Part shown: piece after piece, positions 2,644 to 63,965 of the stretch
Position numbering within the stretch: position 1 is the stretch's first letter
How the letters are laid out: every line of letters starts with the position of its first letter
Origin: a virus
Taxonomy: Duplodnaviria > Caudoviricetes
Virus record (IMG/VR): IMGVR_UViG_3300031994_000022
Reading direction: 5' to 3' (one strand)
DNA: 64,000 nucleotides
Notes under the pieces: model-generated
The model's database searches: none
The model's input: the letters and a program-made list of their open reading frames with translations, nothing else
Told to the model about the DNA's origin: nothing
Position numbers and translations under genes: made by a program

Positions 2644-3678
2644 TTATATTTCACTTATAGATTTTTGTTTAATTTGTTTTATCCCATTTTCATCAAAATA
2701 TTTTCCTATATTTTCATCTGCTGAAATATCCGTATATAAACTGACCATATCAGCCGATTCCCAATTAACAATATCTTGTATTACATTAGTAGGTATATTA
2801 TTCTTCACTAAAGCAGTTGTAAAATAATGTCTCAAACTGTGCCAATAAAAATCTTTACCTAAGAACTTTGTATAATTAGAACTCCATCCGTCCATAGTAT
2901 CTATAGACATAGGTTTTGAATAATCATTCATATTAGGGAATAACCATTCACTATCAATATTATTTTCTTGTCTATATTCAAGCCAAAGTTTTAAATACGG
3001 ATCAAATGGTTTTTTTAAAACATATAATTGTATTTCTTTACCTCTAGCTCCTCGTCCTTTGGTTTTAACTTTTTCGGGAGTTTTATATAACGAACCGAAT
3101 AAAACATTTTCTTCATTAAAATAAGATACCTTAAATCTAGGTATCTCGGATTTTCTTCTCCCTGAATTAATAGCAAGTGATACACAACAAGCTTGTCTAT
3201 ATTTTTTTTGTTCAACAAGCCATCCAAGAAGACTTTCTATTTCATCTTCGGTAAAAATTGTTTTTTCACGTACAGTTTGATTTACAGGAGATTCTATTTT
3301 TTTAATCACACTTCTATAATTAAAATATTCTTCTTCTTCATCGAGTATATTTTCAATATAATTTGAAAGAGAAGAAAGTGTTGATTTTACTCTTCTTATT
3401 CTTTTAGGACTCCATCCCCATTCACTAATAGCGTGATTTTGAAATCTTGCAAACTCACGCTTTGTGATTTCTGTAAATCTCTTATTGTTGTTATTTTTTA
3501 AATTATAAACAAAGAATATATCAAGATCTGATTTATATTGAGAAATAGTATTAGGTGATCTATCAATTGATTTAAGATAATCTAAAAAATCATTTGATAA
3601 TTCTATGTTTTCCGGAAGAATCTGTGATAGAGATTCTTCGTCTGTGATGTTATTATATACTGTCTTTCTTCCTATCAA
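2644..3678 (-). CDS. tyrosine recombinase (position like SPbeta YomM)
   Basis: SGRRKSE, HSLRH and terminal LY catalytic motifs; N-terminal SAM-like domain. Confidence 0.85.
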   Translation of the reverse strand: MIGRKTVYNNITDEESLSQILPENIELSNDFLDYLKSIDRSPNTISQYKSDLDIFFVYNLKNNNNKRFTEITKREFARFQNHAISEWGWSPKRIRRVKSTLSSLSNYIENILDEEEEYFNYRSVIKKIESPVNQTVREKTIFTEDEIESLLGWLVEQKKYRQACCVSLAINSGRRKSEIPRFKVSYFNEENVLFGSLYKTPEKVKTKGRGARGKEIQLYVLKKPFDPYLKLWLEYRQENNIDSEWLFPNMNDYSKPMSIDTMDGWSSNYTKFLGKDFYWHSLRHYFTTALVKNNIPTNVIQDIVNWESADMVSLYTDISADENIGKYFDENGIKQIKQKSISEI

Positions 3679-15691: not shown

Positions 15692-15730
15692 TAACAAAAC
15701 GCAGAGCAGACCTTTTACAATCTACTCTGC
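15692..15730 (-). terminator. terminator-like hairpin closing the RNA array
   Basis: GCAGAGTAGA/TCTGCTCTGC stem followed by GTTTTGTTATTTTT. Confidence 0.55.
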
Positions 15731-15763
15731 AACCGTAATCAATACGGTTCTCTCCTTATATGT

Positions 15764-15806
15764 GCCTCCATTGGACACTTCATTGAGAGGTGTGGAGGCT
15801 TCTGTC
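15764..15806 (-). ncRNA. abiF-like RNA hairpin, copy B
   Basis: GACAGAA-GCCTCCA-CACCTCTCAATGAAGTGTCCAA-TGGAGGC; covaries with copy A. Confidence 0.6.
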
Positions 15807-15811
15807 AAAAT

Positions 15812-15858
15812 GACCCGACGTGGTACGCATCAAAGTGAGAGGCGTGTCGGGTTCTGTC
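15812..15858 (-). ncRNA. abiF-like RNA hairpin, copy A
   Basis: GACAGAA-CCCGAC-ACGCCTCTCACTTTGATGCGTACCAC-GTCGGG; resembles the abiF motif as recalled. Confidence 0.7.
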
Positions 15859-16353
15859 CAATATAAAAGGAGCTGTGTGTACCAGCTCCAATTCCTCGCA
15901 ATATTGGCAGTAATTACAGTTTACTGCCGATAATTCCTTAGCGAGTCTCGGCGTTTTTCTTTTCAGATATCTGCATCCTAGTCAGGGTAAGACTGCCGCA
16001 GCTTACGGTAGAACCTCCACGTAAGAACCTGACAAACCTTACGCTTCAACGGTTAAACTTAACTAGTGAGTAATATTCTAACCGTTACTCGCGGTACGAA
16101 AATGTCACGAAAACTATATACTATTCGTGACACAATCTCAGCTCCTCCTACCAATAGGATAGGTGAGTAAGTAGATAATGCGTAGTCCCGGTGTTAACAC
16201 ATAACACTTACCACGACGGAGGCAGGATACTACGACTTACAATATCTGTCAGAGCGTACTCCACATGGAAGTCTGACAATCCCATGCTTCACAGCAGATC
16301 CGCCAATACCCAAGGGCGAAGAGTAGTTTAAGTGCTTAACTCAGGCACAAACA

Positions 16354-16396
16354 TTTTCAAACCGACCTTTTATATTGCGGTAATCGGTCTCCGCAT
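16354..16396 (-). ncRNA. CptI-like pseudoknot
   Basis: TGCGG-AGACCGATTA-CCGCA-ATATAAAA-GGTCGG-TTTGAAAA. Confidence 0.7.
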
Positions 16397-16610
16397 GGGT
16401 TCTGTTTATTTTGCAACTTTCATTTGATGGCTTATGGTAAGTTGCCACCTTTATACATCTCCACATTCACCGCATACCATCACGGATTCCGCTTCATAGA
16501 CATCTACACTTAGGCGGTGAACACCATGTATTGGCTCTGTTCTCGCTCCACTCTTGTGTCTTTACCACAGATTTAAAGTCTACACCTACGCTACTGACTA
16601 CCAATATTTT

Positions 16611-16644
16611 GAATCGCTAGAAGTTTTAAGTCGTCCTAAAGACC
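16611..16644 (-). ncRNA. ToxI-like pseudoknot, copy 1
   Basis: GGTC-TTTAGGAC-GACT-TAAAAC-TTCTAG; 30/34 identical to 16911-16944. Confidence 0.65.
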
Positions 16645-16910
16645 ATATGGTTATCCGATATTGCAGTGTTTTACAGATTCGTCATCCAACCATATGAACA
16701 CCTCTGGAAACGTGCCTCCTCGGAATAGGGCTACACCAGTACCATTACGCACCTACGTGTTTAGGTCTTTTCGTTGACCAAATATTAAAGCGACTCGGCG
16801 CGGATCTTCACCGCCATCGTGCTAGTTATAGGGAATTCGCCTCGGTTACCAACCTTAACGCCGCTTATAATAATCCACTTTTTATTTGGAAGCGATGGGA
16901 CACTTCGTTT

Positions 16911-16944
16911 GAATCACTAGGAGTTTTAGGTCATCCTAAAGACC
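16911..16944 (-). ncRNA. ToxI-like pseudoknot, copy 2
   Basis: GGTC-TTTAGGAT-GACC-TAAAAC-TCCTAG. Confidence 0.65.
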
Positions 16945-17361
16945 GCTCGTAATGGGTTTAATGTCTCCATACCGACAAAAAGAACGGCATTGATGCTGGC
17001 ATCGCTACCGCTGAAAAACCTTTGGCTTTTCGTTCATAATCCACCGTTGTAGCATAGGTCGTGGGACACCTACCGCACCGTTCTTGGAATTTCTTTGTTG
17101 TGGGAGTTACCCACTTCATTATTTTTCCTCACACTTCGCCGCCACACTAAATGACTATAAAGGTTCTCACTTGAATTTTAAGGTGGACGAGATATTCCAC
17201 CAGTAGAGTTATTGCGCATTACGGTAACTTCGCTTACCTCGGTACTGTCGGTTAAGGGAGCCGACTCCTATTGGATAGCTGACAACATATCACCTATTGC
17301 CGAGCTTTCATGGTATATTTAACGCCCCCCACTAGGGAAAGAGGTGCTATCCGTTGTCCTC

Positions 17362-17507
17362 TTATATTTTACTGCCCTATCAAAACCATCATAGGACTCT
17401 TCACCCGGTCAATTTTTATTTTACCGACGAGTCAGAACCGTCACTCGTCATCTTCGCTCGGTCAGTTTTTATATTACCGACGAGTCAGAACCGTCACTCG
17501 TCTCATC
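17362..17507 (-). repeat. three tandem 52-53 nt structured repeats
   Basis: hairpins at 17479-17502, 17426-17449, 17374-17397; loop GAYGGTTYTG conserved, stem covaries. Confidence 0.85.
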
Positions 17508-17567
17508 TATTATGGAATTATTTTTTGTTTTATTTGGTTGATTTGGATCATTTGCGTAATACCATTT

Positions 17568-26358: not shown

Positions 26359-28980
26359 TTAATCCAATTTTTCGCTTACTGGTACAGTTTTAAAGCATTT
26401 TTTAAAGGTTTTCGGGTTTAAATCATACAATATTTTAAGAAGTATTGGTCTGTTTTTACTAAGTTTTGTGTTAATAATATCTGATTGTCTCTTTACCCCA
26501 GGTGTTATCATAAACGCTCGATTAATCAACCAAGACATTAATCCAATGTATTTACTTGAAAGATTGAGTCTTCTGATATCTTCTATCATCTTGTCGTAAT
26601 CCATACGGAGCAATAACCAATCTTCATAGTCTGTATCAGAATTTTTTATAGTTGAATAATATTTTAAGGAATACTTTTCTATTAGCTCCTCTACTTGTTT
26701 GCATTTTTTCTTATAAGGTTTATCTTCATGATTAACAAAGAAATCTTGTATTGGTATAGATGGACAAGCATATCTCATTCTACCAACCTTTAGTTTGCCT
26801 ACTTCGTTCATTGGGCAAATGATATTTGGATTAATCTTACTTCTGACTTCCGGTTTTATTAACCCAAAGAAAGATGGGTAGCCAAACTCTTTAATATTAA
26901 GCTCGTTACGTATTCTTTGGATTTCCCCATGAATATCCACGTTGAAAGTTTTCTTGGCATTATCTATTGAACACTGCGCTAGTACAGCCAAGATATCAAC
27001 ATACTTTTCAAAATCCTTCCCAAATTCATTATATGTATAACTAAGTCCTACTTGCGCTACATTTGATGATTCTCCAATATCTAATTGGGTTGAAGCTATC
27101 TTGTTGTCTACTATTGCAAAGTTTTTAATATCTCGACCGTATATGTTTTTCTCCATAGGTATATTGTTATCTACGGTAGGATAGTGAGCATAACAATACT
27201 TAGCGTGCTCCACAATATTTTTCTCGTTGGTCACATATACCTGATCTGAGTCCTGGTCGCTACCATTTTCTCTAGCTTGGAAATCCGTACCAATAAGATT
27301 AACGCAGATTATCAACTTCCCTAAATTAAAATATCTATCAAAATATTCATGGTGGTGATTATGAAGATACCCCAAGTTTGCATCTGAATTGTATGGACTA
27401 CGAAATGCGGCAAGATACTCTCCGTCATCGAACCTAGCAGTCCAACATTGTATTGTCCCATCCTCATGGTCTAGTGTGGGATCCTCTAATGGATTTTCAC
27501 CAACTGAATGCATTAACATTCCATAAGGATTACCAACAATAACTAGATTATCTGCATTTTGAATTATATGCCCACTTTTTAAATCTTTTAAATAAGCACT
27601 GATAATCTTAGTACGTCTTTCTCTAAAATAGTCGCAGTTGACAAAATCAGGATTCTGCTTACATAATTCATACAATACTTCGAAATCATTTGAAAAATTC
27701 TTCCACCTTTGGAGATAATCAAAAAAAACATTGTCATCATTCTTTAACTGCTCAATGTATTCAATACTATCAGAAAGCACCTCACCCATAGTATTTATAT
27801 TAAGAGAATTAACCATCTGATAACTCATACGCTGTTTATTTCCGTGCTTACTTTTATGGGCAGTCTTAACTATACCGAACCAACAGCCATTCTCACGAAC
27901 CCTGTCTGACCAATATTCATAGGACACATCAAACTTAAGCCACTTTGTAGCCTGGTCTGTAGTGATCAATTGAATATCTTTAGCTAAATGCTCATTACCC
28001 CACATGTCTATAACAGTGGCGGTCTCATAGTCTTCGCCAAAATAATCCCGAAAGTATTTCTGTATCTTAGTACAGAACGCCGCAGCCTTAAAGAAATGAT
28101 GTCTGAGTAACACATATCCATTTCCCCATTCGGGAAATATAGATTCATCTATCAAAGCTTGTCCGTCAAATATGGTATTCTTTACCTCATAATTATCACG
28201 AGGTATTCCTTGACAATGCCCATTTTCGTCAAGCTCAATACTTAATACTTTTGTTTTGAAAAAAGAGTCCACGTCTTTAAGTATAAGAATATTCTCCGGT
28301 TTTATTTGAACCTTACCTTCAATAGAACTTGCAATAAGAGAGGAGTATGCTCCAATCTCTACTATTGGAGCATTTTTCTTCGGCAGTTTTAATCCCATCC
28401 AAAGAAAGTCGTGAGCTTTCTTCCACAAAGAGGATTTAATAAAGAGAACGGATCCCTTCTTGGCTTTTCCTGTGCTACGATAGAGCATCTTGTAATGTAC
28501 GACCTCGTAGTCGTATTGTTTTGTTTTTTTATTGTACTTCGGATATTTAATATCAACCCCATTAACATAGTGATCGATACGTATATCATCCGCAGATATC
28601 TTTTCGTATTTGTCTTTATTCTCTTCAATAATCTGAATTCGTTTTGCTAAATTATGTTTTCTATCTTCAGCTTCTTGTATTTTATGTTTGATTCCGCGAG
28701 ATTTCGCCACCTTACGTTCTATACGATTTTCTTTTATTTGTTTCCGCACACGTTTTATAGCTTCTTCGTATGAACAGCTTCCATACTTATAATCAATACA
28801 AATAATATCTCTGGTGGATTCTTCTTTCCAAAGCTTAAGCCCATTCTCCATCAAAAAATCTTTAAATAGACTATTGGTTAACATAGCCGGGGTAGTATCA
28901 TATTTAAATCTTACCCCTTGATTTACTTCGCATATAGAACCTGCTGTGTAATTAAATATTTTTATTCCATACTCCGACAT
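26359..28980 (-). CDS. YonO-like single-subunit (two-barrel) RNA polymerase
   Basis: DGQ motif, FRSP motif, catalytic loop NGSDQDSD (DxDxD), SIDNAK; position upstream of late genes. Confidence 0.85.
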   Translation of the reverse strand: MSEYGIKIFNYTAGSICEVNQGVRFKYDTTPAMLTNSLFKDFLMENGLKLWKEESTRDIICIDYKYGSCSYEEAIKRVRKQIKENRIERKVAKSRGIKHKIQEAEDRKHNLAKRIQIIEENKDKYEKISADDIRIDHYVNGVDIKYPKYNKKTKQYDYEVVHYKMLYRSTGKAKKGSVLFIKSSLWKKAHDFLWMGLKLPKKNAPIVEIGAYSSLIASSIEGKVQIKPENILILKDVDSFFKTKVLSIELDENGHCQGIPRDNYEVKNTIFDGQALIDESIFPEWGNGYVLLRHHFFKAAAFCTKIQKYFRDYFGEDYETATVIDMWGNEHLAKDIQLITTDQATKWLKFDVSYEYWSDRVRENGCWFGIVKTAHKSKHGNKQRMSYQMVNSLNINTMGEVLSDSIEYIEQLKNDDNVFFDYLQRWKNFSNDFEVLYELCKQNPDFVNCDYFRERRTKIISAYLKDLKSGHIIQNADNLVIVGNPYGMLMHSVGENPLEDPTLDHEDGTIQCWTARFDDGEYLAAFRSPYNSDANLGYLHNHHHEYFDRYFNLGKLIICVNLIGTDFQARENGSDQDSDQVYVTNEKNIVEHAKYCYAHYPTVDNNIPMEKNIYGRDIKNFAIVDNKIASTQLDIGESSNVAQVGLSYTYNEFGKDFEKYVDILAVLAQCSIDNAKKTFNVDIHGEIQRIRNELNIKEFGYPSFFGLIKPEVRSKINPNIICPMNEVGKLKVGRMRYACPSIPIQDFFVNHEDKPYKKKCKQVEELIEKYSLKYYSTIKNSDTDYEDWLLLRMDYDKMIEDIRRLNLSSKYIGLMSWLINRAFMITPGVKRQSDIINTKLSKNRPILLKILYDLNPKTFKKCFKTVPVSEKLD

Positions 28981-39764: not shown

Positions 39765-40040
39765 ATGGAAAAGAGATATTATTCAATTGAAATTAACAAG
39801 GATGATCCAACAGCATTGACATATTGCTTAAGGAAATTGGAAAACGCAATTCCTGACTATGAGTACGATTGGCGTATTGTGATAAACGCTGGTGGTATTG
39901 ATTATGGAATATATCTCAATATAGATATTGAGGATAAAGAAATTGAGATATGTAACCAACCAAGATATGGAAATGAAGCAGAAGATATGCTAGATGATGT
40001 AATCGAATTATTCGAAGAAGAAGATGATGATGAAGAATGA
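39765..40040 (+). CDS. hypothetical acidic protein
   Basis: RBS + ATG. Confidence 0.75.
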   Translation: MEKRYYSIEINKDDPTALTYCLRKLENAIPDYEYDWRIVINAGGIDYGIYLNIDIEDKEIEICNQPRYGNEAEDMLDDVIELFEEEDDDEE

Positions 40041-40064
40041 AATGAATGTTTTATAGAAGGGAGA

Positions 40065-40319
40065 ATGAATATGTTTAAGCATAGATTTTTTAATAAGGAA
40101 AACCGAAAGACAGACAAGGAAATAAGGGAGTTTATAACGAATACAAATAAGCCGTTGGTGTACACATATGGTTACGCTTGGAAATCACCAACAACTTATA
40201 GAGTTCCTATGGATAAAGAAGAAGCGTTAAAGGCAATTGAAAAAAATGGTCTTACGGATATAACAGAAGAAGATGACGTTATACACATTAATCAGTTTAG
40301 CGAAAATGATATGTGGTAA
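40065..40319 (+). CDS. hypothetical protein (cassette-like)
   Basis: flanked by boundary sites. Confidence 0.75.
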   Translation: MNMFKHRFFNKENRKTDKEIREFITNTNKPLVYTYGYAWKSPTTYRVPMDKEEALKAIEKNGLTDITEEDDVIHINQFSENDMW

Positions 40320-40355
40320 ATAAAAGAAAGGATTTATTTAAAGGGAGGTAGAAAT

Positions 40356-40688
40356 ATGTATACAGAACTTACAACATTAAAGGAACTTGAGGATTTAGGT
40401 TCAGCACTTACTATTGAAGGACTTGCCGAGGATAGTATCAAAGATTTTATAGAATGGGTTAAGCAGTATACTCCGATGATAAATGAAACGGCATATATCA
40501 TTAAAGGAAAAACAATGAATACAGTATATGGATTAACAGGCAATAATGCATATCCTGATGATTGCAATATTGTTTCAATTAAGTTAGAGGATATGGAAAA
40601 CAGTATGGCTGTTGTAATGCCAAGATTCCAAATAGGAGCAAGGTGGTTTGATGATATTGTTATGAATAACGCAGCAAGGGAGGAGTGA
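40356..40688 (+). CDS. hypothetical protein (cassette-like)
   Basis: RBS + ATG; GARWFDDIV. Confidence 0.75.
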   Translation: MYTELTTLKELEDLGSALTIEGLAEDSIKDFIEWVKQYTPMINETAYIIKGKTMNTVYGLTGNNAYPDDCNIVSIKLEDMENSMAVVMPRFQIGARWFDDIVMNNAAREE

Positions 40689-40879
40689 ATATGTATGACA
40701 AGATAACTATTAACAAAGGAGATATAAATGAATTGTGTGAACACCTGGATATGAATGGATATTGTTTTGAACAGATTGGTCAGAATTTGTATGTATTCTA
40801 TGAGGAAACAGATTATGTTCGGACAATTCTAAAGGAACGTGGTTATGAATATTGGGTAAACGATGAGATAGATATGTAA
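40685..40879 (+). CDS. hypothetical protein
   Basis: coupled to upstream gene. Confidence 0.7.
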   Translation: MNMYDKITINKGDINELCEHLDMNGYCFEQIGQNLYVFYEETDYVRTILKERGYEYWVNDEIDM

Positions 40880-40902
40880 TTAAAATAAGATTTTAAGGAG
40901 AA

Positions 40903-41295
40903 ATGAATATGGGATACGAAAGTAAGTTTTATGCAGTAAAAGAATATAATTTTCCAGAGGGTATACATCATTCAGATATTATAGCTACATTAGATATGTG
41001 CAAGATGGGATATGACGATGATGTACTAACCTTCCGCAAATTGTTTGATACGGAAACGCCGTTCTCTATTTACATGTATGAATATGATCCTGAAACGGAA
41101 GAAGAAAAATATATGGATGTAATCGAAGACAAATATGGAGAGAGGTTAAAATATATTTCAGACAAGAAAAAGGGAATTGAAATGCTAAAGAGAATTATAG
41201 ACAACGATGATTATTGGAGATTTAAGTTGTTATTGGAATTTATGAGGACATTTGCAGATTATGATGATGTGTATATAGTCCACTATGGTTATTGA
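40903..41295 (+). CDS. hypothetical protein (cassette-like)
   Basis: flanked by boundary sites. Confidence 0.75.
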   Translation: MNMGYESKFYAVKEYNFPEGIHHSDIIATLDMCKMGYDDDVLTFRKLFDTETPFSIYMYEYDPETEEEKYMDVIEDKYGERLKYISDKKKGIEMLKRIIDNDDYWRFKLLLEFMRTFADYDDVYIVHYGY

Positions 41296-41325
41296 TAAAA
41301 GTAAGATTTTAAGGAGGTAGAGCAA

Positions 41326-41559
41326 ATGAGAAGTGAAATAGAAATCAGAGAAAAAATTGACAGCCTTATGGAAGCTTTCAGAAAAGCAAAAAAAGCAGAC
41401 ATTGGAGTTGTTAAGAAAGCAAATCTTGTTGAAGATATAGCTGGACAGATAGATATGTTGTTATGGGTAGTAGAAGACGAAAGTGGATATGATCCATTGG
41501 ATGAACGCATTGACGAGATACTGATTAATAAGGATTATTTGATGGAGATGATGATATGA
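41326..41559 (+). CDS. hypothetical protein
   Basis: RBS + ATG. Confidence 0.7.
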   Translation: MRSEIEIREKIDSLMEAFRKAKKADIGVVKKANLVEDIAGQIDMLLWVVEDESGYDPLDERIDEILINKDYLMEMMI

Positions 41560-41696
41560 ATTGTTGGGATTATAAGGTAATGCAAATTTATAACGAAATC
41601 AATGTGTTGTGCGAAAACAATCGTAATGGCAGATATGATAAGCAGATTGCAGAGAAAAGAAGTGAATTGAACGAAGTATTAAAGAAGTGTAAATAA
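41556..41696 (+). CDS. hypothetical protein (46 aa)
   Basis: ATGA overlap; stop lies inside a boundary site. Confidence 0.55.
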   Translation: MNCWDYKVMQIYNEINVLCENNRNGRYDKQIAEKRSELNEVLKKCK

Positions 41697-41724
41697 AAAT
41701 CACATTTTAAGGGAGGTAGTAATT

Positions 41725-41919
41725 ATGGGAAATAGTTTTTTTGATTGTATGATTGTAACAGACGGAAGAAACACTTGTAAGGCAAGTGATTTAGGAACTA
41801 AACGAAATCCATTTAAGTCTTCTCAACGTGAACTTTCACATATAGAACGAACAGAAGCTGAAGTATATGCAACTGATAATAAATGGGCAATAGAAAATTA
41901 TGAGGCAACTCATAAATAA
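41725..41919 (+). CDS. hypothetical protein (cassette-like)
   Basis: flanked by boundary sites. Confidence 0.7.
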   Translation: MGNSFFDCMIVTDGRNTCKASDLGTKRNPFKSSQRELSHIERTEAEVYATDNKWAIENYEATHK

Positions 41920-41952
41920 AAACAACAATTTAAGGAAGGAGGAAATTAAGCT

Positions 41953-42372
41953 ATGGTTACAGTAATATGCTATGGGCAGAAAAAGGAATATGTAAGTAGA
42001 CAAACAGCTATCAATGAATACTTGGAGGGTATGATGTGCTGCGAAGGAAGTGAAAGGGATCGGTACACTAATGTGTATCTCGATCTGATTGAAGGTAAAG
42101 ATGTTTGTACAGATGAATGGGAGGTAAGAGATATGTATAGAAAAGCAACACAAGAAGAGATCAGAAACATTAAGGCAAAGGATTGGTTCTTAGTACGAGA
42201 TGCTTATGATACCGATAAAGTGTGGGAGTTTCAAGCATACCGCAATGCAAGTTGTACGAACGGAAGATGGTATGTGACAATGGAAACATATGGATTAGAT
42301 GGAAGAACAGGAAATCTTATACTGGTTGGATATACATCTTTTGGCGATGACAGAATAGTTATTGAAGAATAA
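41953..42372 (+). CDS. hypothetical protein, apparent two-gene fusion
   Basis: internal GGAGG + ATG at 42132. Confidence 0.7.
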   Translation: MVTVICYGQKKEYVSRQTAINEYLEGMMCCEGSERDRYTNVYLDLIEGKDVCTDEWEVRDMYRKATQEEIRNIKAKDWFLVRDAYDTDKVWEFQAYRNASCTNGRWYVTMETYGLDGRTGNLILVGYTSFGDDRIVIEE

Positions 42373-42398
42373 AACGAATATTTGATGGAGGTGGTTAT

Positions 42399-42647
42399 AT
42401 GGTTGAACCTTTTAAAATCACAAAGGAAATGATTGATAAGAGACAAGAGAAGAAAGACGAAATAATGGAACATATTAATAAGAAGATAGCAGAGGCAGTT
42501 AAACGTGGTTGGAACGAAACAAATTTTGATTGTTACGATGATAATTTATATGACGAAATAAAAAGAGAATATATAAATGCAGGGTATAGAGTGTATCCAA
42601 ACATTTATGCAAGATGTGGTGGTAGAAATGATTTTATAGCATGGTAA
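42399..42647 (+). CDS. hypothetical protein (cassette-like)
   Basis: flanked by boundary sites. Confidence 0.7.
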   Translation: MVEPFKITKEMIDKRQEKKDEIMEHINKKIAEAVKRGWNETNFDCYDDNLYDEIKREYINAGYRVYPNIYARCGGRNDFIAW

Positions 42648-42671
42648 ATAAAACCAAGATTTGAAAGGAGA

Positions 42672-42869
42672 ATGAATATGACTGGTGAAATATTTGCAAG
42701 AATATTAATAAACGAAAAGGAACGCAAAGAAATTGAAAAAGCAATATCTGTTATGAGTAATATTTTTGGAGCTTATGAAGAAACTGGATTGCAAAGCGTT
42801 GAACCGTTGCTTGATACTTTGACAAATGGCGTAGCACTACTTGAAGAAATACTTAAGGAAAATGAATAA
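42672..42869 (+). CDS. hypothetical protein (cassette-like)
   Basis: flanked by boundary sites. Confidence 0.7.
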   Translation: MNMTGEIFARILINEKERKEIEKAISVMSNIFGAYEETGLQSVEPLLDTLTNGVALLEEILKENE

Positions 42870-42909
42870 TGAATACTAAATAAAACAAGGTTTTTAAGGG
42901 AGGTGTAAT

Positions 42910-43101
42910 ATGTGGACAGAAAAAGCAAAGGAATTATACAAAGTGTTAAATGAGTTTATGGACGAAATAGAATTTAGATATGACGAAGATGAGGATGAAT
43001 ATTATATGTTAGGAAAACAGAATTGGGAAGATCGAGATTTTCTCAGTACTCTTGATGCATTAAAGGGAGATTTGGAATATTACATTGGGTTAGGGAGGTA
43101 A
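42910..43101 (+). CDS. hypothetical protein
   Basis: RBS + ATG. Confidence 0.7.
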   Translation: MWTEKAKELYKVLNEFMDEIEFRYDEDEDEYYMLGKQNWEDRDFLSTLDALKGDLEYYIGLGR

Positions 43102-43106
43102 ACAAC

Positions 43107-43334
43107 ATGGCAAAGTACAGAGTTTGTGTAGAAAGTATTGATTATCTTTATATTGACATTGAAGCAGATACACCGGAAGAAGCAAAGGAATTTGCTGACG
43201 AGTATGTAGATGGCGGTGAATTTCATAGCAACGCAACAGATGTTGGTTGGAGATATTCCGAAACAATAAAACTTAAAGATGATGCGATAGTAGATTATAA
43301 CGTAAAGGAGTTTATGAAAGGATTAGAAAGATAA
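43107..43334 (+). CDS. hypothetical protein (DpnD/PcfM-like pattern)
   Basis: MAKYRV...IEADTPEEA. Confidence 0.7.
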   Translation: MAKYRVCVESIDYLYIDIEADTPEEAKEFADEYVDGGEFHSNATDVGWRYSETIKLKDDAIVDYNVKEFMKGLER

Positions 43335-43362
43335 AATAATGTTTTCATAGGAGGTAAAAGCA

Positions 43363-43524
43363 ATGCCATATAGAGAATTTATTTTATACAAATGTAATGA
43401 TGGTATTAGTTATAACATATTTTATAAAAATTCAGATGGAAATGGAGAGCATTTGATTTGTACTGTCGGTTCATTTGAAAAAGCAAAACAATGGGTTGAC
43501 GAATGGTACAAGAGAAATAAATAA
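43363..43524 (+). CDS. hypothetical protein (53 aa, cassette-like)
   Basis: RBS + ATG; stop lies inside a boundary site. Confidence 0.6.
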   Translation: MPYREFILYKCNDGISYNIFYKNSDGNGEHLICTVGSFEKAKQWVDEWYKRNK

Positions 43525-43551
43525 AATAACTTTTTGATAGGAGGTAACAAT

Positions 43552-43929
43552 ATGAACGTATTAGATTATGTATTTGCATATGTAACGGAAGAAGGATACA
43601 GAGGAATAATAAGGGCAGATAGTGAAGAGGAAGCAATAGAACGCCAAAATGATTTTGATCCGAATGACGAAGTGAAATATATAGTTAGATTATCAGATTT
43701 AGATAACGATTATGGTGTTATAGAAGAGTGTAGAATTAATGAAGCCATTGATAATCAAAGATATATAAGACAATACTCATTTGATATTGATGGAGATACA
43801 GACGCAGATGAACTTGCAAGAGTAATAAATAAAGCTGGACTTGGAGTTAAAGTAATAGGGTCAGAATGGAAAGCAACGTGGAAATATGGTGATTATAAAA
43901 AAGGTGAACCACCAATAAGTTCCAACTAA
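43552..43929 (+). CDS. hypothetical protein (cassette-like)
   Basis: RBS + ATG. Confidence 0.7.
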   Translation: MNVLDYVFAYVTEEGYRGIIRADSEEEAIERQNDFDPNDEVKYIVRLSDLDNDYGVIEECRINEAIDNQRYIRQYSFDIDGDTDADELARVINKAGLGVKVIGSEWKATWKYGDYKKGEPPISSN

Positions 43930-44127
43930 TAAAAGCAGAGTTTCATAAGGAGGTAAAACAAATGAGAACACATAGAAAATGTATCAGATGTAATACATAT
44001 GTCAAAAGAGAAACGAGTAAAGGACTCCGCAGAGAGTATCCGTTTTACTGCCCGAAGTGTGACGAGAATATGTATAGATTTGAAACGATAAAAATAAATA
44101 AAAACAGATTTGAAGGGAGATAACAAT

Positions 44128-44328
44128 ATGATTAAAGAAACAATTATAGCACTTGTAAAACCCGGAGATATGGTAGAGATAACACCTATTTCTAACGTTC
44201 CAAATGCTGAACGCAGATTTAAGGTAAACGAAGTTCTTGATAACGGATTTTTATATGGATTATCCACTACTTGTGATGGTTATGTAATACCATTCAGTTG
44301 GATAAAAGATATTAAAATTGTAGCGTAA
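44128..44328 (+). CDS. hypothetical protein (cassette-like)
   Basis: RBS + ATG. Confidence 0.65.
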   Translation: MIKETIIALVKPGDMVEITPISNVPNAERRFKVNEVLDNGFLYGLSTTCDGYVIPFSWIKDIKIVA

Positions 44329-44357
44329 TGAAAGCTGGTTTGAAAGGAGATAATGCT

Positions 44358-44552
44358 ATGAAGTATGTAGTGTTAGCAAGATCAAAAACGGATGATATGA
44401 TACTAAGTAGTTTTGGTGTCTTCAGAAGTAAGAGAAATGCAAATCGACAGAAAGATACAATTACTGAGGAAGACCCTATAGATAATGCATATTATTGTGT
44501 AGAGGATGTTGATCCAACAGGAAGTTTTGCAAACGATAATGTATGGGATTGA
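44358..44552 (+). CDS. hypothetical protein (cassette-like)
   Basis: RBS + ATG. Confidence 0.65.
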   Translation: MKYVVLARSKTDDMILSSFGVFRSKRNANRQKDTITEEDPIDNAYYCVEDVDPTGSFANDNVWD

Positions 44553-44588
44553 ATTATTAAATGAAAGCTGAATTTCATAAGGGAGGCG

Positions 44589-44795
44589 ATGAATATGGAA
44601 AACTATTGGATACAAGTAAACGATTATATGGAACCATTTAAAATAGCATTAACAGAAGAGGAAGCAAACGGAGTAAAAAAAGTTTTAGTGAAATTAGCCC
44701 AGGTTGATGAGGATGCTTTAGTACAAATGACAGATGAAGACGGCGACATTGTATTTGTAGACAATTATAAAAAGTGGATTAAAACACACAGATAA
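44589..44795 (+). CDS. hypothetical protein (cassette-like)
   Basis: flanked by boundary sites. Confidence 0.7.
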   Translation: MNMENYWIQVNDYMEPFKIALTEEEANGVKKVLVKLAQVDEDALVQMTDEDGDIVFVDNYKKWIKTHR

Positions 44796-44822
44796 AAAGT
44801 AAATTTCAAAGGAGATAAAGAT

Positions 44823-45020
44823 ATGAAATTAAAAGAATTTAAAAATACAATGGTGTGGAAAGTTGCGGATTGTGTTGAATATGTTGACGAAGATGGTGTT
44901 GAAATAGAACCGACTACCGAAGTTAAAAGAAGAAAAATGAACAATATGGAAGTTATTAGTCATGGAACAATGATTGATGGTGACATAGCAACACTTGAAG
45001 TTGTTTTAGGTAAACGATAA
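44823..45020 (+). CDS. hypothetical protein (cassette-like)
   Basis: flanked by boundary sites. Confidence 0.7.
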   Translation: MKLKEFKNTMVWKVADCVEYVDEDGVEIEPTTEVKRRKMNNMEVISHGTMIDGDIATLEVVLGKR

Positions 45021-45048
45021 AAGAATACTTTTAAAAGGAGATAAGGAT

Positions 45049-45267
45049 ATGGAAAAAACAAAATACAGATATGCGGTTATTGAAGAGCTGTTGCATGACT
45101 ATAGTATCATACGATATTTTGATGACTTTGAAGAAGCAAAAGATTTCTGTTATAAGTTACGAATTAACAAATATGCAAATCACGATAGACTAAAGGAGAT
45201 TGAATATGAAAAATGTCCGTTTGATAATGGATATAATGTAGTAAAAATATCAGATGAAATATATTAA
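45049..45267 (+). CDS. hypothetical protein
   Basis: RBS + ATG. Confidence 0.7.
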   Translation: MEKTKYRYAVIEELLHDYSIIRYFDDFEEAKDFCYKLRINKYANHDRLKEIEYEKCPFDNGYNVVKISDEIY

Positions 45268-45693
45268 AGGAGAAAATTAAAATGAAAACAATAACAATAT
45301 CAATTAAACCACCGAATTGTTTCGGTAATCAGTCACCAACAAACAAACAGTGTAGTAGTTGTGTATTTTGTTTTGACTGCGCAGAGAAGAGAAATGATCA
45401 ATCATCTCAAAAGAGAGATTGAAATATAAAAGGAGGACACGCTTATGGAGTACAAACTTATTCCTGTTGTAGATGAGTACGGTGTTGTAGAACATTGGGA
45501 AATCTATAAAGGAAAAGAGTTCATTATCAGTTGCGATGATAATGAACTCAATGGAACTCTTGCTAATCTTGGTTAACAACTACAGATTAGCATAAGGCAA
45601 CCGAGTAGTCAAGTAAACCTTGGCTATTCGGCGTTCTCTTATAAAGAAAGGAGAAGAGAGGAATGGGATATAAGAGTAAAGGAGGCGATGTAA

Positions 45694-46266
45694 ATGAAAA
45701 TATTACATGGTGGAGCATTTAGTACTGGCGGTGGTTGTATAGCAGTACTTGGGGAACTTGATAATGGAATGTGGTTTATCTCAGATAATATAGGATGGAG
45801 CGTAACTGATTTTGATACAAGGAAGACTTGTAAAGAAATGGGAGTTGGCGATGGATGTGATGATAATGATCTTGCAGTATTTTGGATTGACTATGACAGT
45901 GGACATTATATAGATGTTGACGAAAGAGAATTAGATAATGCATTTCATGATTTCTGTATAAGATATGATTGTAAAGAACCAGGAATTACAGATGGTTACG
46001 AAAAATTCGATGGTATATGGGGAAATCTGTGTGACTATATTGATTGGAGTCATACAAAAATAGATGAATACAGTAAGCCAATACATTTTAAAAACATTAT
46101 AAACAATAGACTTGATAAAGCAGTAAATGAAATAATATATGATATTCAAGACAGACTTGATATTGAAAATGGAATATATGATTCAAAAAAATTTAAGAAG
46201 GCAAAAGAATTATTAGTAAATGAGATAATTAAATTATTAGAATCCGATAATAAAGAGGAGGAATAA
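45694..46266 (+). CDS. hypothetical protein
   Basis: RBS + ATG; STGGGC motif. Confidence 0.75.
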   Translation: MKILHGGAFSTGGGCIAVLGELDNGMWFISDNIGWSVTDFDTRKTCKEMGVGDGCDDNDLAVFWIDYDSGHYIDVDERELDNAFHDFCIRYDCKEPGITDGYEKFDGIWGNLCDYIDWSHTKIDEYSKPIHFKNIINNRLDKAVNEIIYDIQDRLDIENGIYDSKKFKKAKELLVNEIIKLLESDNKEEE

Positions 46267-51070: not shown

Positions 51071-52063
51071 ATGTGTGCCAGAGATGATGTTGATAAGAAA
51101 AATTATGAAATAATAAAAAGAATTGCGGCTGAATATCCTAATGAATTAATGTTGTATATTAATAGTTTAACAAGAAAAACATCTTATACTAAAATGGTTT
51201 ATGCTAGATATGTATCAAAATTTCTTAATTATATGGAAACAGAACTAAAACTAAATCCATATATTATAAAGAATTATATTAAAATTAAACCAATGAATAT
51301 TGATGGGTATATGGAAAAAATCAAATATAATGAAAACGGAAAAGAGAATTCAGGGATGTATCTTAACGCACAATTGGCGGCAATCAATGGATATTTTGGA
51401 TTTTTATTAAAAAATGAGATAATAAAATCGAATCCATGTGCTAATATAGAAAACCCAAGAGATAATAAGGAACATCGTATAACAACTATTACTGATAATG
51501 ACTTAAATATTATTGTGGATAATATAAAAAAAGGAACTGGTTCTTATAAAGCCAAAGCCACTCAGAAAAAATGGGTAAATAGAGATATAGCGATAATAAC
51601 TCTAGGTATTACAACCGGCTTAAGAATTAGTGCTATAGTAGGGATTGATATTGATGATATAAATTTAAAAGAAAAATATATAATGGTTACAGAAAAAGGA
51701 GATGTTCAAAAAGTTATATATATAGGTGATAAAACTATATTATCTTTAAAAAAATGGATTAATGATCGAAAGCAGATGGTGGACAAAAATGAAAAAGCAT
51801 TATTTATTTGTCAAGGTAATCATAGGATATCGGTTCGAGCTATAGAAAACAGATTTAAAAAGCTTTCAGAAGAAACAGGGAAGAAAATTACACCGCATAA
51901 GATGAGAGCAACTTGTGCAACCAGACTTTATGAGGAAACCGGAGATATATACTTGGTACAACAGCAGCTTGGTCATAAAAATATAGAGAATACTAAGAGA
52001 TACGCAGCAGTTTCCGAGCGTAAAAAGAGAGAGGCAGCAAGCATACTTGATAACTTATACTAA
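51071..52063 (+). CDS. XerC/D-like tyrosine recombinase
   Basis: TGLRISA, EKG, HKMR, LGH, TKRY: complete R-K-H-R-H-Y set. Confidence 0.92.
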   Translation: MCARDDVDKKNYEIIKRIAAEYPNELMLYINSLTRKTSYTKMVYARYVSKFLNYMETELKLNPYIIKNYIKIKPMNIDGYMEKIKYNENGKENSGMYLNAQLAAINGYFGFLLKNEIIKSNPCANIENPRDNKEHRITTITDNDLNIIVDNIKKGTGSYKAKATQKKWVNRDIAIITLGITTGLRISAIVGIDIDDINLKEKYIMVTEKGDVQKVIYIGDKTILSLKKWINDRKQMVDKNEKALFICQGNHRISVRAIENRFKKLSEETGKKITPHKMRATCATRLYEETGDIYLVQQQLGHKNIENTKRYAAVSERKKREAASILDNLY

Positions 52064-53482: not shown

Positions 53483-53689
53483 TATCAAATTGTGATTTTA
53501 TAGGAGGATGAATGTGGAAGATATAGTAGAGGAATTACAAAAAATAGTAACGGAACTGAAAGAGTACAGACGAGATGTCTATAACTGCGATATGTGCAAC
53601 AATCACACTACTCTGGCGAGCGAGTATCCGTGCAATGAATGCAAGAGGAGTTATAGAGATTATTTTACACTCAGAACGGAGGATTAATC

Positions 53690-59871: not shown

Positions 59872-60791
59872 AACACTTTATGGATATATCAAGGATAATA
59901 GAAAATGAGGGTTCTGAATTGACAATGAGTAATACCGAGGCATTTAAACCCGGAGACATTATACAAATTTCCGAAAAGGTTGATGGCGCAAATGCGTCTA
60001 TAGCTTTAGACGATAACGGAAATCTTGTCGCTTACTCACGAAAGAATGAACTTAATTATCAAAATACCCTTCGTGGTTTTTGGAATTATGTGCAGACTTT
60101 GGATAGAGAAAAGTTTCGGGATTTAGGAAAACGTGTATGTTTTGGCGAATGGTTGGTATCACATACTGTCAAGTATAACGCAGATGCTTATGACAAGTGG
60201 TATGTGTATGATATGTATGATACGGAAACAGAAGAATGGCTGCCACAGAGTGTTGTAAAGGAATTTGCAGAGACTCACGGACTTGAATATATACATGTTT
60301 TATATGAGGGAGAATTTATTTCTTGGGATCATTGTCGTACATTTCTTAACAGTCCGGCTTATGGAGATAGTCAGGAAGGTATTGTGGTAAAGAATCAATC
60401 TAAACTTAATTGTCCAGATATAAGGCGACCATTTTACCTCAAGATAGTTAATGATTCTTTTATGGAAACCAAAGCCCATAATCATATTAAAAAGGTGCTT
60501 GATCCACAGCATCAGGAGGAAAAGAATCAAGCGGAAGAGATAGCCAATGAAGTAGTTACTAAGGCAAGAGTACAAAAAGAAATTCATAAGATGATTGATG
60601 AGGGTATTCTTCCTGAGAAACTTCAACCTAAAGATATGAGTGTGGTTGCAAGAAATTTACCGAAGAGGATATATGATGACATAGTTAAAGAAGAACTAGA
60701 ACGTATTTCAGATACTATTGGCAATCATTATTTTGGTAAAGCGGTTAATGCAGTAACTATGAATTATGCGAAAGATATAATATTAGGATAA
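59868..60791 (+). CDS. RNA ligase (Rnl2-like)
   Basis: motif I EKVDGAN, FGEW, EGIVVK, LKIV. Confidence 0.85.
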   Translation: MKHFMDISRIIENEGSELTMSNTEAFKPGDIIQISEKVDGANASIALDDNGNLVAYSRKNELNYQNTLRGFWNYVQTLDREKFRDLGKRVCFGEWLVSHTVKYNADAYDKWYVYDMYDTETEEWLPQSVVKEFAETHGLEYIHVLYEGEFISWDHCRTFLNSPAYGDSQEGIVVKNQSKLNCPDIRRPFYLKIVNDSFMETKAHNHIKKVLDPQHQEEKNQAEEIANEVVTKARVQKEIHKMIDEGILPEKLQPKDMSVVARNLPKRIYDDIVKEELERISDTIGNHYFGKAVNAVTMNYAKDIILG

Positions 60792-60820
60792 AATGAGTCT
60801 TTTAAAGGAGGTAATTAAAT

Positions 60821-62884
60821 ATGTTGGATTTTAAAGTTGTAAAAATTGGATTAGAGAATCATTTTAAAAAGATGTCGGAAGAGAATGAACGTCTATTTGT
60901 AGTTGATGTAGATAAAGATGAGATGTGGAATCTGTATTTAGACAGTATACCATCAGAAGATAACAAAATCTTTAGGCAAAGAAGAGAATATGACTGCTCT
61001 TGTTGTAGACATTTTATTAAATCCATTGGAAATGTTGTGTCAATTAAAGATGGAGTTGTTACATCAATATGGGATTTCGAAACCACTGAACCAAAATGGA
61101 ACATGGTTGTAAAGAAGCTTTCTGAATATATAAAGTCTAAGACAATATCAGATATATTTATTTCAAAGTTCGCAGACATAGGTACAGACTACAATATGGA
61201 GCAGAGCGAAGATGGAAAGCTTATTAAGTGGGAACATTTTTATTGTAAGCTTCCGGATAAGTTTGTTTTTAGATCCAGATATGACACGATTGATACTGAA
61301 CGTAGTCAGTATAGAGATGTCAGAAATGTTTTTAAGCGTTCACTTGATGAACTTTCCATGGATGCGGTTGACACCGTACTCGATCTGATTAATCAGGGTA
61401 GCTTGTATAAAGGTGACGAATACAAGAGAGTTGTGCAGAATTTTAGAGCATTAAAGAAAGAATATGACTCACTTTCAGATTATCAGAAAGAGCTATTTGC
61501 TTGGGAGAAGTCGGTTGTTACCGATGTTGCAACTGCAAAAATCCGTAATACTGCGATAGGAACATTACTTATAGATATTTCCGAAAATCTTGATTTGGAA
61601 GTGGCAGTTAAGAAGTATGAAGCGGTTACAGCTCCAGCAAATTACAAGAGATCAAAGCCGATTTTTACTAAGCAGATGCTTGAGGATGCACAGAAGACTA
61701 TAACAGAACTTGGATATTTAGATTCATTAGAGAGAAGATATGCAAATGCAGATGATATTACCGTAAATAATATAATCTTTAGCAATAAAGATACAGCAAA
61801 ACGTGTGCAGGGTGGTAGTTCATTGTTTGATGAATTAAGCAAAGAGGTTAAATCTTCTCCGAAGAAATTCGACAGAGTAGAAGAAATTGGAATTGAAAAA
61901 TTTATTAATGATGTGGTTCCAACGGCAACCGAAATAGAAGCATATGTAGAAGGAAAACATAGTCAAAATTTTGTGTCGCTGATAGCTCCGGTAAACAAGG
62001 ACTCAAAGACAATGTTTAAATGGAATAATAATTTTTCCTGGGCATATACGGGCAATGTTACTGACTCGATGGTCAAACAGAATGTAAAGAATGCTGGTGG
62101 TAAAGTAGATGGAGTACTTCGATTCAGTATTCAGTGGAATGATTTAGGAGAATATGATGGTAATGATCTTGATGCTCATTGTATCGAACCTAATCTAAAT
62201 GAAATCTTTTACAGTAACTGTAGGAAACCTAGTTATTCAAGATTGGGTGGACAGCTTGATATAGATATTATAAATCCTAGTAGAGATACTCCAGCAGTTG
62301 AAAATATTACATGGGGAGATATTTCGAAAATGCAGGATGGTGTTTATAAGTTTTTTGTTCATTGTTACACTAACAGAGGTGGACATTCAGGATTTAGAGC
62401 TGAGATAGAATTTAATGGACAGATATATTCTTATGATTACACAAAGGATCTTCGTCAGGGTGAAAAAGTTCAAGTAGCTGAAGTTACATTAAAGAATGGA
62501 CAGTTTACTATAGAGGAAAAGCTCACATCTAATTGTTCTAGTAGAGAAGTTTGGGGTATAAAAACAAACGAATTTACCCCAGTTTCAGTTATATGTTATT
62601 CGCCAAATTATTGGGATGAACAGAATGGAATAGGAAACAAACATTATTTCTTTATGCTTAAGGATTGTGTTAATCCAGAACTTCCAAATGCTTATTATAA
62701 TGAGTTCCTTAATGGAGAGTTATATCCTAAGCATCGTAAAGTAATGGAAGCGTTGGCTTCAAAGGCTCACGTTCAAGATGCAGATGATCAGTTGTCTGGT
62801 ATAGGATTTAGTTCGACATTAAGAAATGAACTTGTTGTAAAGGTTAAGGGTGCTACCGAAAGAATACTTAAAATAAAATTTTAA
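60821..62884 (+). CDS. conserved phage protein with C-terminal YfaP/TerD-like beta domain
   Basis: YDCSCCRHF; RFSIQW..DLDAHC..LDID..VENITW. Confidence 0.65.
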   Translation: MLDFKVVKIGLENHFKKMSEENERLFVVDVDKDEMWNLYLDSIPSEDNKIFRQRREYDCSCCRHFIKSIGNVVSIKDGVVTSIWDFETTEPKWNMVVKKLSEYIKSKTISDIFISKFADIGTDYNMEQSEDGKLIKWEHFYCKLPDKFVFRSRYDTIDTERSQYRDVRNVFKRSLDELSMDAVDTVLDLINQGSLYKGDEYKRVVQNFRALKKEYDSLSDYQKELFAWEKSVVTDVATAKIRNTAIGTLLIDISENLDLEVAVKKYEAVTAPANYKRSKPIFTKQMLEDAQKTITELGYLDSLERRYANADDITVNNIIFSNKDTAKRVQGGSSLFDELSKEVKSSPKKFDRVEEIGIEKFINDVVPTATEIEAYVEGKHSQNFVSLIAPVNKDSKTMFKWNNNFSWAYTGNVTDSMVKQNVKNAGGKVDGVLRFSIQWNDLGEYDGNDLDAHCIEPNLNEIFYSNCRKPSYSRLGGQLDIDIINPSRDTPAVENITWGDISKMQDGVYKFFVHCYTNRGGHSGFRAEIEFNGQIYSYDYTKDLRQGEKVQVAEVTLKNGQFTIEEKLTSNCSSREVWGIKTNEFTPVSVICYSPNYWDEQNGIGNKHYFFMLKDCVNPELPNAYYNEFLNGELYPKHRKVMEALASKAHVQDADDQLSGIGFSSTLRNELVVKVKGATERILKIKF

Positions 62885-63512: not shown

Positions 63513-63555
63513 TAAACCATTATATAAAAAATAATTTTTAAAGGCGGAAATTAAA

Positions 63556-63807
63556 ATGAAAAAGATTGTTTGCGGTTGCTTTGGAAACATATATTACGCA
63601 ACGATATTAAAAGATGGTTTAATGTCGGATGTTAACAGAGTAGATGTTACAGACGATGCTATTGATGCGGTACTCCAACATATAATTTCGATGGATAAAT
63701 TTGATAAAGAAGGTTTTGCTGGATACGTTTTTCGTAAGACGAAAACTGATGGACATATATGTCTATGCGTATTTGATAAGGATAAATACGAACTAAAAAA
63801 GAAATAA
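63556..63807 (+). CDS. hypothetical protein
   Basis: IYYA..DVTDDAIDAV. Confidence 0.7.
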   Translation: MKKIVCGCFGNIYYATILKDGLMSDVNRVDVTDDAIDAVLQHIISMDKFDKEGFAGYVFRKTKTDGHICLCVFDKDKYELKKK

Positions 63808-63965
63808 TAGTTATTACCGCAGGGGTGGCAGTGGTACCAATCTTAGCGGATTATCCCTCCTGATGAAGAGGTTTCGCTGCGGTATATAAATGAATATGTG
63901 CCCATGGTTATGTGGTAGTACCCTCATGTAACCTATAAAACTGAATTTTTATTGGAGGGTAAAAA

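Follow-up and report, generated by a model that had tools for sequence, protein, structure and literature searches.

Conserved two-armed junction elements mark where single genes are exchanged in the small-gene arrays of a sheep gut phage

The 64,000 nucleotides (nt) analysed here (the window) come from the virus record IMGVR_UViG_3300031994_000022 (Duplodnaviria; Caudoviricetes) and hold, at 40037-45034, an array of small genes whose junctions carry a short two-armed sequence element. The complete record measures 141,835 bp, is 95% complete, was recovered from a sheep gut metagenome and has a G+C content of 33%. Genes at 1-31 kb of the window, among them those for terminase and portal, lie on the minus strand, and genes from 31.4 kb onward on the plus strand. 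The array forms the distal part of a plus-strand transcription unit that begins past a divergent promoter region (31.3-31.5 kb) and a terminator-like hairpin at 33220; the unit is closed by a terminator-like hairpin with a 13-bp stem (45601-45631, +). The slots between the elements are filled by 22 small open reading frames (ORFs; 40071-45267, +) of 46-139 aa, none of known function. One of these, ORF 40909-41295, is a real conserved gene, for which gut and rumen metagenomes yield 40 or more homologue clusters.

The element takes the form (stop)AT[A/G]AAA-N6-TTTNA[A/T]-SD, where SD is the Shine-Dalgarno sequence, and measures 17-19 bp with conserved arms of 6-8 bp. All 17 array sites lie at gene junctions, on the gene strand (+) and within one long early operon. 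Twelve have a spacer of 6 nt: site 1 (40037-40054, ATGAAA-TGAATG-TTTTAT, with a TGA stop within the left arm), site 4 (41295-41312, ATAAAA-GTAAGA-TTTTAA), site 5 (41693-41710, ATAAAA-ATCACA-TTTTAA), site 7 (42369-42386, ATAAAA-CGAATA-TTTGAT), site 8 (42648-42665, ATAAAA-CCAAGA-TTTGAA), site 9 (42880-42897, ATAAAA-CAAGGT-TTTTAA), site 10 (43331-43348, ATAAAA-TAATGT-TTTCAT), site 11 (43521-43538, ATAAAA-TAACTT-TTTGAT), site 12 (43929-43946, ATAAAA-GCAGAG-TTTCAT), site 15 (44561-44578, ATGAAA-GCTGAA-TTTCAT), site 16 (44792-44809, ATAAAA-AGTAAA-TTTCAA) and site 17 (45017-45034, ATAAAA-GAATAC-TTTTAA). The spacer is 5 nt in site 3 (40880-40896, TTAAAA-TAAGA-TTTTAA), site 13 (44098-44114, ATAAAA-ACAGA-TTTGAA), which the upstream ORF reads through, and site 14 (44328-44344, ATGAAA-GCTGG-TTTGAA). 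It is 7 nt in site 2 (40320-40338, ATAAAA-GAAAGGA-TTTATT) and site 6 (41916-41934, ATAAAA-ACAACAA-TTTAAG).

The initial annotation, which was made from the letters and their ORFs, had described this array as 17 ATRAAA-N6-TTTNAW sites, each with a spacer of its own (5 nt in three copies), a stop codon in or against the left arm, a ribosome-binding site soon after, and unrelated small ORFs in the intervals. The description holds. A scan of the plus strand that allowed spacers of 5-6 nt returned 20 matches in the window, 14 of them within the array, and three variant sites (40320, 40880 and 41916, with a 7-nt spacer or a TTAAAA left arm) complete the 17. All 17 spacers differ from one another. 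At eight sites the left arm contains the upstream stop codon and at six it touches that codon, the Shine-Dalgarno sequence begins 1-5 nt past the right arm, and the ATG follows the site by 10-18 nt, giving a stop-to-ATG gap of 26-40 nt. The 22 ORFs show no paralogy among themselves.

Between 40040 and 45049 a site is present at every non-overlapping gene junction, and the three junctions without one (40685, 41556 and 43107) join genes that overlap or nearly abut. Junctions at 33-40 kb of the same transcription unit carry no site. Promoter-like matches near the array number 68 against a shuffle expectation of 87, with no internal excess; a promoter function of the element was rejected on this count and on the position of the Shine-Dalgarno sequence.

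A strict scan of both strands for ATRAAA-N6-TTTNAW gives 29 matches in the window. Dinucleotide-preserving shuffles of the window give 2.15 +/- 1.52 (maximum 8), and none of 100 shuffles reached 29; the comparison with background proposed at the outset thus came out clearly in favour of enrichment. Across the genome, sites followed by a Shine-Dalgarno sequence number 29 on the gene strand vs 3 on the opposite strand, and they form two clusters, one at 40.0-45.1 kb of the window and one at 63.9-73.9 kb, so the feature reaches past the array first described. The second array lies mostly beyond the window; its first site is at 63935-63952 (+). Two lone sites stand on the plus strand as well, one at 53484-53501 (ATCAAA-TTGTGA-TTTTAT) ahead of the Shine-Dalgarno sequence of ORF 53514, and one at 60788-60805 ahead of a conserved 687-aa gene. 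A further candidate just after the 687-aa gene (62867-62884, AAAAT-N5-ATTTT) was discarded, being the coding C-terminus LKIKF* with its stop and no junction element. This mimicry recurs in many relatives, high-G+C ones included, and can mislead motif scans. The element bears some resemblance to the ComK AT-box (AAAA-N5-TTTT), to the CodY box and to the IHF site, with differences in spacing or polarity.

Comparison with seven sequenced relatives (L123, L156, L157, L164, L167, L168 and L171), which have only scattered genes in common with the arrays, indicates that the sites form a scaffold. L157 shares a single gene with the window, at 86% nt identity, yet eight spacers of the first array recur in it in the same order, while the ORFs between the common cores have no detectable similarity to each other at the DNA or protein level. 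Outside the one common gene, every word of at least 14 nt common to the window and L157 lies in a junction element, and the identical tracts at matching cores are only 12-16 nt long. The cores of sites 2, 7, 8, 9, 10, 11 and 15 are among those found in L157; the cores of sites 9 and 11 are also found in L168, in which cores 9-12 repeat the scaffold pattern. The second array and L123 have five to six spacers in common, that of the first site included, and the order is again kept. Pairs of arrays that do not match have 0-1 spacers in common. Core GAAAGG (site 2), found also in L156, L157, L164 and L167, has four different ORFs on each side across five genomes, and core CGAATA (site 7), common to L157 and L167, has three different ORFs on each side. 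The inner core of AAA, spacer and TTT thus keeps its order between relatives, and the ORFs around it are unrelated. The right arm and Shine-Dalgarno sequence have a genome-specific flavour (ATGGAAAGGAG in L157, for example). The genes between the sites are less stable than the sites themselves, which mark where single genes are exchanged.

Neighbouring cores also resemble one another. Adjacent spacers of the first array resemble each other more closely than they do after shuffling of their order (P = 0.0005), and near-copies of a single core stand on both sides of several ORFs: sites 3 and 4 beside ORF 40909-41295, sites 14 and 15 beside ORF 44358-44552, and the pair at 72615 and 72859 in the second array. 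This likeness points to duplication of a site upon gene insertion, and near-copy cores are the residue that would be expected of insertion by recombination within a core.

Evidence for gene turnover at the sites comes from the ends of homology blocks. Between the two arrays and the seven relatives, 23 of 30 such ends fall in the stop-to-ATG intervals, which account for 14.3% of the sequence. When contigs from four further gut metagenomes were mapped on 37-48 kb, many joints appeared, most of them ending in the right arm, the Shine-Dalgarno linker or the ATG, or where the left arm begins. Window stretches to which no contig of another metagenome mapped, and small word shares in sequencing runs, did not count as evidence. 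Joints in or beside sites include 40895->41708, 44108->40337, 42383->40676 and 40336->40907; the first of these is a three-gene deletion with zero extra bases. ORF 40909-41295 occurs in five contexts, with homology running from its ATG to the left arm or just past the spacer, and in L164 this ORF and the pair at 40356-40879 stand in reversed order. Likewise, the slot held by each of the ORF families F1, F2 and F3 differs from genome to genome. The initial annotation had inferred a system that captures or shuffles cassettes of accessory (anti-defence) genes, and had proposed to check whether gain, loss and reordering break inside the 6-nt spacer. The anti-defence role is unsupported, as no ORF of the array has a known function. 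Gain, loss, replacement and reordering of single genes at the sites are all seen. The joints, however, lie at arm/spacer borders or in the right arm, linker or ATG rather than inside the spacer, and a cassette in the strict sense is at odds with sites that stay while genes change. The cores are recombination joints, and the data do not single out the machinery.

The element is found well beyond this genome and reaches about 65 copies per genome in some other large Firmicutes (pro)phages. Arrays in relatives were located by scanning viral contigs for the pattern and then re-scanning them locally; a very strict pattern had no match among the viral contigs, a looser one gave mostly single chance matches, and the re-scan revealed motif arrays in many large viral contigs. 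Whole-record counts, set against a backward-read control, reach 65/68 vs 2/1 in the relative G004 and 49/50 vs 5/3 in G002, and G003 and G006 have 27/36 and 37/27 matches. Nine other relatives that carry the 687-aa protein have background counts. Among isolated phages, Bacillus phage SPbeta has 15 matches at 60-100 kb against 1.6 +/- 1.3 expected; they adjoin stop codons in the yoq and yop genes, with ATAAAA-N6-TTTTAA sites at the yoqC/yoqD, yoqG/yoqH and yoqY/yoqZ junctions, for instance. Lactococcus phage 949 (4 vs 2.8 expected) and Staphylococcus phage SEP9 (5 vs 3.8 expected) are not enriched. (Pro)phages with the element have 15-70 junction sites per genome; the sites of G004 are spread over a 78-kb early region, and those of the window genome occupy two accessory arrays only. 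The junction element is real and widespread.

Some copies in SPbeta had been annotated previously only as stem-loops. When the array and three motif-rich loci were compared with isolated phages by megablast, there were no matches; a search with the 190-aa ORF at 45694 found no relatives, and exact-protein look-ups of two array ORFs returned only the source phage itself. ORF 40903 has distant relatives (30%) without the motif.

What the element consists of was examined in G004, whose 62 sites, oriented by gene direction, give the logo C-R-ATRAAA-N5-A-TTTYAT. Both half-sites read AT[A/G]AAA on their own strands, with A at 70-75% and G at 25-30%. The counts at the variable pair (A,T 32; A,C 13; G,T 8; G,C 6) show no covariation. 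Equivalent arms combined with a lack of RNA-type covariation make a protein-binding DNA site probable, and the element is probably a protein-bound site on double-stranded DNA with two like half-sites. The distance from site to Shine-Dalgarno sequence in G004 ranges from 0 to about 20 nt, and the right arm is detached from the Shine-Dalgarno sequence in L157 too, so this arm is not merely a part of the latter.

Two readings would deny the element such a role. According to one, there is no element, and the pattern is a chance product of AT-rich stop contexts and extended Shine-Dalgarno sequences. The left arm does contain TAA or TGA, the end bases of the right arm can extend the Shine-Dalgarno sequence (AAAGGAGG), and a genome of this G+C content is AT-rich. 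Even so, the proposal is scarcely credible: the 29 matches stand against 2.2 expected, junctions of the same operon that lack the motif still have stops and Shine-Dalgarno sequences, relatives of similar G+C have background counts, and the right arm can stand apart from the Shine-Dalgarno sequence, as in L157 and G004. The shuffles and the motif-poor relatives together contradict it. The other reading has the element act only in RNA, as an A-rich/U-rich hairpin or an unstructured intercistronic spacer, through translational coupling, ribosome standby or RNase processing, so that it would be a passive landmark for recombination. The stop in or touching the arm at 14 of 17 sites, the closely following Shine-Dalgarno sequence, the uniform stop-to-ATG gap, the location of all sites on the sense strand and the lack of the element between overlapping, coupled genes all suit this reading. 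This reading is nonetheless improbable. A forced 6-bp stem has an energy of only +1.1 to -2.7 kcal/mol, with no T run, and on these marginal values an RNA hairpin was rejected as the leading explanation. In addition, the variable pair has more A.C mismatches (13) than G.U pairs (8), the same A/G choice in both arms on their own strands is a property of DNA, the spacing to the Shine-Dalgarno sequence varies in G004, and no family in an Rfam scan matches the element.

The phage encodes candidates for a protein that acts on such a site. The 142-kb genome holds genes for four tyrosine recombinases, each of which retains the catalytic R, HxxR, H/W/N and Y: R1, a YomM-like enzyme (2644-3678, -); R2, an Xer-like enzyme in the early region (51071-52063, +); and two that lie past the window, at 103509-104693 (+) and 106761-107741 (-) on the window's scale. 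Tyrosine recombinases occur in 12 of 12 motif-rich genomes vs 3 of 9 motif-poor ones. In a profile of 539 proteins across 18 genomes, R1 was the best discriminator, being found in 10 of 11 motif-rich and 0 of 7 motif-poor genomes. It is 31% identical to SPbeta YomM, and its clade retains the catalytic R, K, HxxR, H/W and Y. The sites themselves, as ATRAAA-N6-TTTYAT with equal half-sites (62 sites in G004 and the 17 array sites), have the geometry of Xer/dif-type sites and resemble those of single-recombinase Xer systems; the arms of difH and difSL likewise end in GAAAA beside a short central region (PMC5357621). The link to tyrosine recombinases drawn in the initial annotation therefore stands in part: the geometry fits and four enzymes are intact, but only non-exclusive co-occurrence ties any recombinase to the sites. 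R2 was rejected as a motif-specific enzyme, because its clade also occurs in the motif-poor relatives G011 and G012, and R1 was rejected as a sufficient marker of the motif, given its homologues in the unenriched phages 949 and SEP9.

R1-type homologues occur in many virulent large siphoviruses (949, SEP9, and phages of Enterococcus and Lactobacillus), suggesting that they serve a purpose other than integration. The literature searched makes no mention of yomM. In L168 (10459-11475) and L170 (3607-4623), the homologue of ORF 40909-41295 is followed after 3 kb by a RadC gene and the gene of a 338-aa Xer-like recombinase with 31% identity to R2, and is directly preceded by a GP88-family gene; by this arrangement, the early-region recombinase is syntenic.

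Our tentative interpretation, plausible but short of probable, is that the 18-bp two-armed element is bound by a protein and serves as a fixed socket where related phages gain, lose or exchange single ORFs. The protein would read the element as DNA through its two equivalent half-sites. Where co-infecting phages or prophages have matching sockets, exchange would proceed via the core that these have in common, and occasional exchange between unlike sockets would generate deletions and permutations. An arm-binding phage tyrosine recombinase may catalyse or stimulate the exchange, with R1 as the best candidate, and the remaining breakpoints may arise from short homology in the Shine-Dalgarno linker and at the ATG. 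A more specific proposal, possible though doubtful, is that the arrays perform a natural form of recombinase-mediated cassette exchange, in which the unique 6-bp centre would act as an address and only matching sockets would be recombined. R1 or another enzyme would then swap single ORFs in register and leave the array undeleted, and rare events between unlike sockets would insert, delete and permute genes and duplicate cores.

Several observations weigh against the socket interpretation. The fixed position by stop codon and Shine-Dalgarno sequence also suits a role in expression. Some breakpoints fall at the ATG, about 20 nt off the core, and the linker TTTTAAGGGTGATGATATG is kept with core GAAAGG ahead of three different ORFs; neither is predicted by a strict site-specific mechanism, and the ATG breakpoints fit recombination via any short stretch shared at the junctions. 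Matching cores were found partly via their spacers, which biases the count of zero spacer changes. The profile result for R1 is not significant alone after correction for 539 tests, and since R1 homologues are present in 949 and SEP9, neither of them motif-enriched, the co-occurrence may only reflect lineage. Finally, the conserved arms are only 6-8 bp long; known tyrosine-recombinase sites have arms of 10-13 bp.

A rival view is that the element is a regulatory operator, bound by a dimer that silences or tunes each small gene, with recombination as a by-product. The junctions would then be the sole sequence common to diverged arrays, and homologous or microhomology recombination would resolve there, in the manner of T4-type PeSLs or lambdoid phage linker sequences. 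Binders could be a stoperator-type or an SPBRE/MrpR-type repressor, possibly of recombinase fold. There is precedent in the SPBRE (ATACA-N7-TGTAT), which is two-armed, adjoins the Shine-Dalgarno sequence of yopM and of yopV, and is the target of a recombinase-fold repressor (PMC10516654). The symmetry of the arms at the DNA level, the 15-70 junction sites per (pro)phage genome and the scatter of breakpoints across arm edges, linker and ATG agree with this view, and the genome-specific flavours of right arm and Shine-Dalgarno sequence, such as that of L157, fit homogenisation or shared constraint. Other evidence makes an operator a less likely, though possible, reading. In the window genome the sites are confined to two accessory arrays, with none in the rest of the operon or in other lytic operons, but in G004 they extend over a 78-kb early region; tracts of 12-16 identical nt are short for homologous recombination; the spacers are kept, although free drift would be expected if only the arms mattered; and the catalytic residues are kept in all four recombinases. 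MrpR chromatin affinity purification sequencing (ChAP-seq) in SPbeta gave only ten peaks, all at the SPBRE (PMC10516654), so the known recombinase-fold repressor is not the binder there. A true integron, in which an IntI-type integrase would take up attC-type cassettes at attI, is by comparison a highly improbable explanation. The arrays do share with integrons a series of small ORFs that lack promoters and have an imperfect inverted repeat behind each, in a genome that encodes tyrosine recombinases. But an integron platform was not found, in that no IntI-type integrase lies beside an attI and promoter: no recombinase gene with attI and an outward promoter adjoins the array, and the nearest, R2, is 6 kb downstream and far closer to Xer proteins (E = 1e-17) than to IntI4 (E = 3e-5 over about 70 residues). 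The sites, of 17-19 bp, are unlike attC structures of 57-141 bp, and it is the genes that move and the sites that stay.

Judged by analogy, the arrays would work most like PeSL-mediated shuffling and pdif modules. PeSLs (promoter-early stem-loops) of T4-type phages are short motifs that likewise flank small non-essential ORFs in hyperplastic regions (PMC2839356, PMC4122927). Where close relatives differ by an insertion, deletion or replacement, its ends lie in the motif, and here 23 of 30 homology ends lie in the junctions, in agreement with the contig joints. PeSLs are 50-70 bp long, contain a sigma-70 promoter and a terminator, and recombine by homology (PMC2839356, PMC4122927), whereas the element is 18 bp long, lies within an operon, has no promoter-like signal or stable hairpin, and carries in each copy a spacer of its own that is kept between relatives. 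The pdif/dif modules of Acinetobacter plasmids are accessory modules that are shuffled between replicons and bounded by many Xer-type cores with two arms and a 6-bp centre (PMC6449649, PMC13141974). Their sites have 11-bp XerC and XerD arms in alternating orientation and use host XerCD (PMC6449649, PMC13141974); the element has two like arms of 6-8 bp and delimits single-ORF modules within an operon, and the enzymes are phage-encoded, their link to the sites being putative.

Other known systems are more distant. Integron attC arrays also consist of tandem promoterless ORFs with an imperfect inverted repeat at or after the stop and a tyrosine recombinase in the genome, but the element has no IntI/attI/Pc platform, is far shorter, forms a scaffold that is not linked to genes and shows no crossover inside the site centre. 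The SAS/ESAS of Cluster K mycobacteriophages are inverted repeats with a variable spacer, which precede a conserved sequence with the Shine-Dalgarno motif and the start codon at some of the genes, always in one orientation (PMC3203893). ESAS arms are 17 bp long and the site follows a gene family (PMC3203893); the arms of the element are 6-8 bp long and it is tied to the upstream stop. No such linkage of site to gene family was seen, as F1, F2 and F3 change slots and the cores accompany unrelated ORFs. The SPBRE/MrpR system of SPbeta and the stoperators of Cluster A phages resemble the element as operators of temperate phages with many dispersed copies at gene starts or junctions (PMC10516654, PMC9283540), and the SPBRE is also alike in being two-armed, in its ability to adjoin the Shine-Dalgarno sequence and in its binding by a protein of tyrosine-recombinase fold (PMC10516654). 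However, the SPBRE has a fixed sequence and about 10 promoter copies, and stoperators are 13 bp and asymmetric (PMC10516654, PMC9283540); the element has variable spacers, lies within operons and is distinct from the SPBRE within SPbeta itself. What distinguishes the arrays is that ordered conserved sockets with unique centres are combined with intervening ORFs that turn over.

Long runs of small genes with fast turnover and of unknown function are a feature of large gut and rumen phages. How turnover keeps genes intact is an old question of phage mosaicism, and here the joints are visible, in a socket pattern that recurs in many uncultured (pro)phages. As SPbeta is both enriched for the element and genetically tractable, binding, cleavage and exchange are directly testable. 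If a recombinase reads the sockets, they would represent a new kind of gene-exchange system and provide engineers with a set of mutually exclusive recombination sites; read by a regulator, they would form a new dispersed-operator system in SPbeta-like phages.

Several other features of the window deserve mention. About 450 bp (63516-63965, +) have no credible ORF, and part of this region (63812-63929) is 92% identical to L123, with a junction site directly after it; the block may be a conserved non-coding RNA or regulatory region. About 1.8 kb between portal and the next large late gene (15700-17510, -) also have no credible ORF. The sole match of tRNA and Rfam scans is a tRNA-Pro at 22995. 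With the portals of SPbeta-like, Sundance, Tsamsa and Lactococcus 949-type large siphoviruses, the portal protein shares 24-29% identity. An 873-aa protein that heads the late genes (phrog_8308; 26359-28980, -) has a weak match (21% over 453 aa, E = 1e-4) to YonO, the single-subunit RNA polymerase of SPbeta. At position 5717 the window differs from the genome record by a single base.

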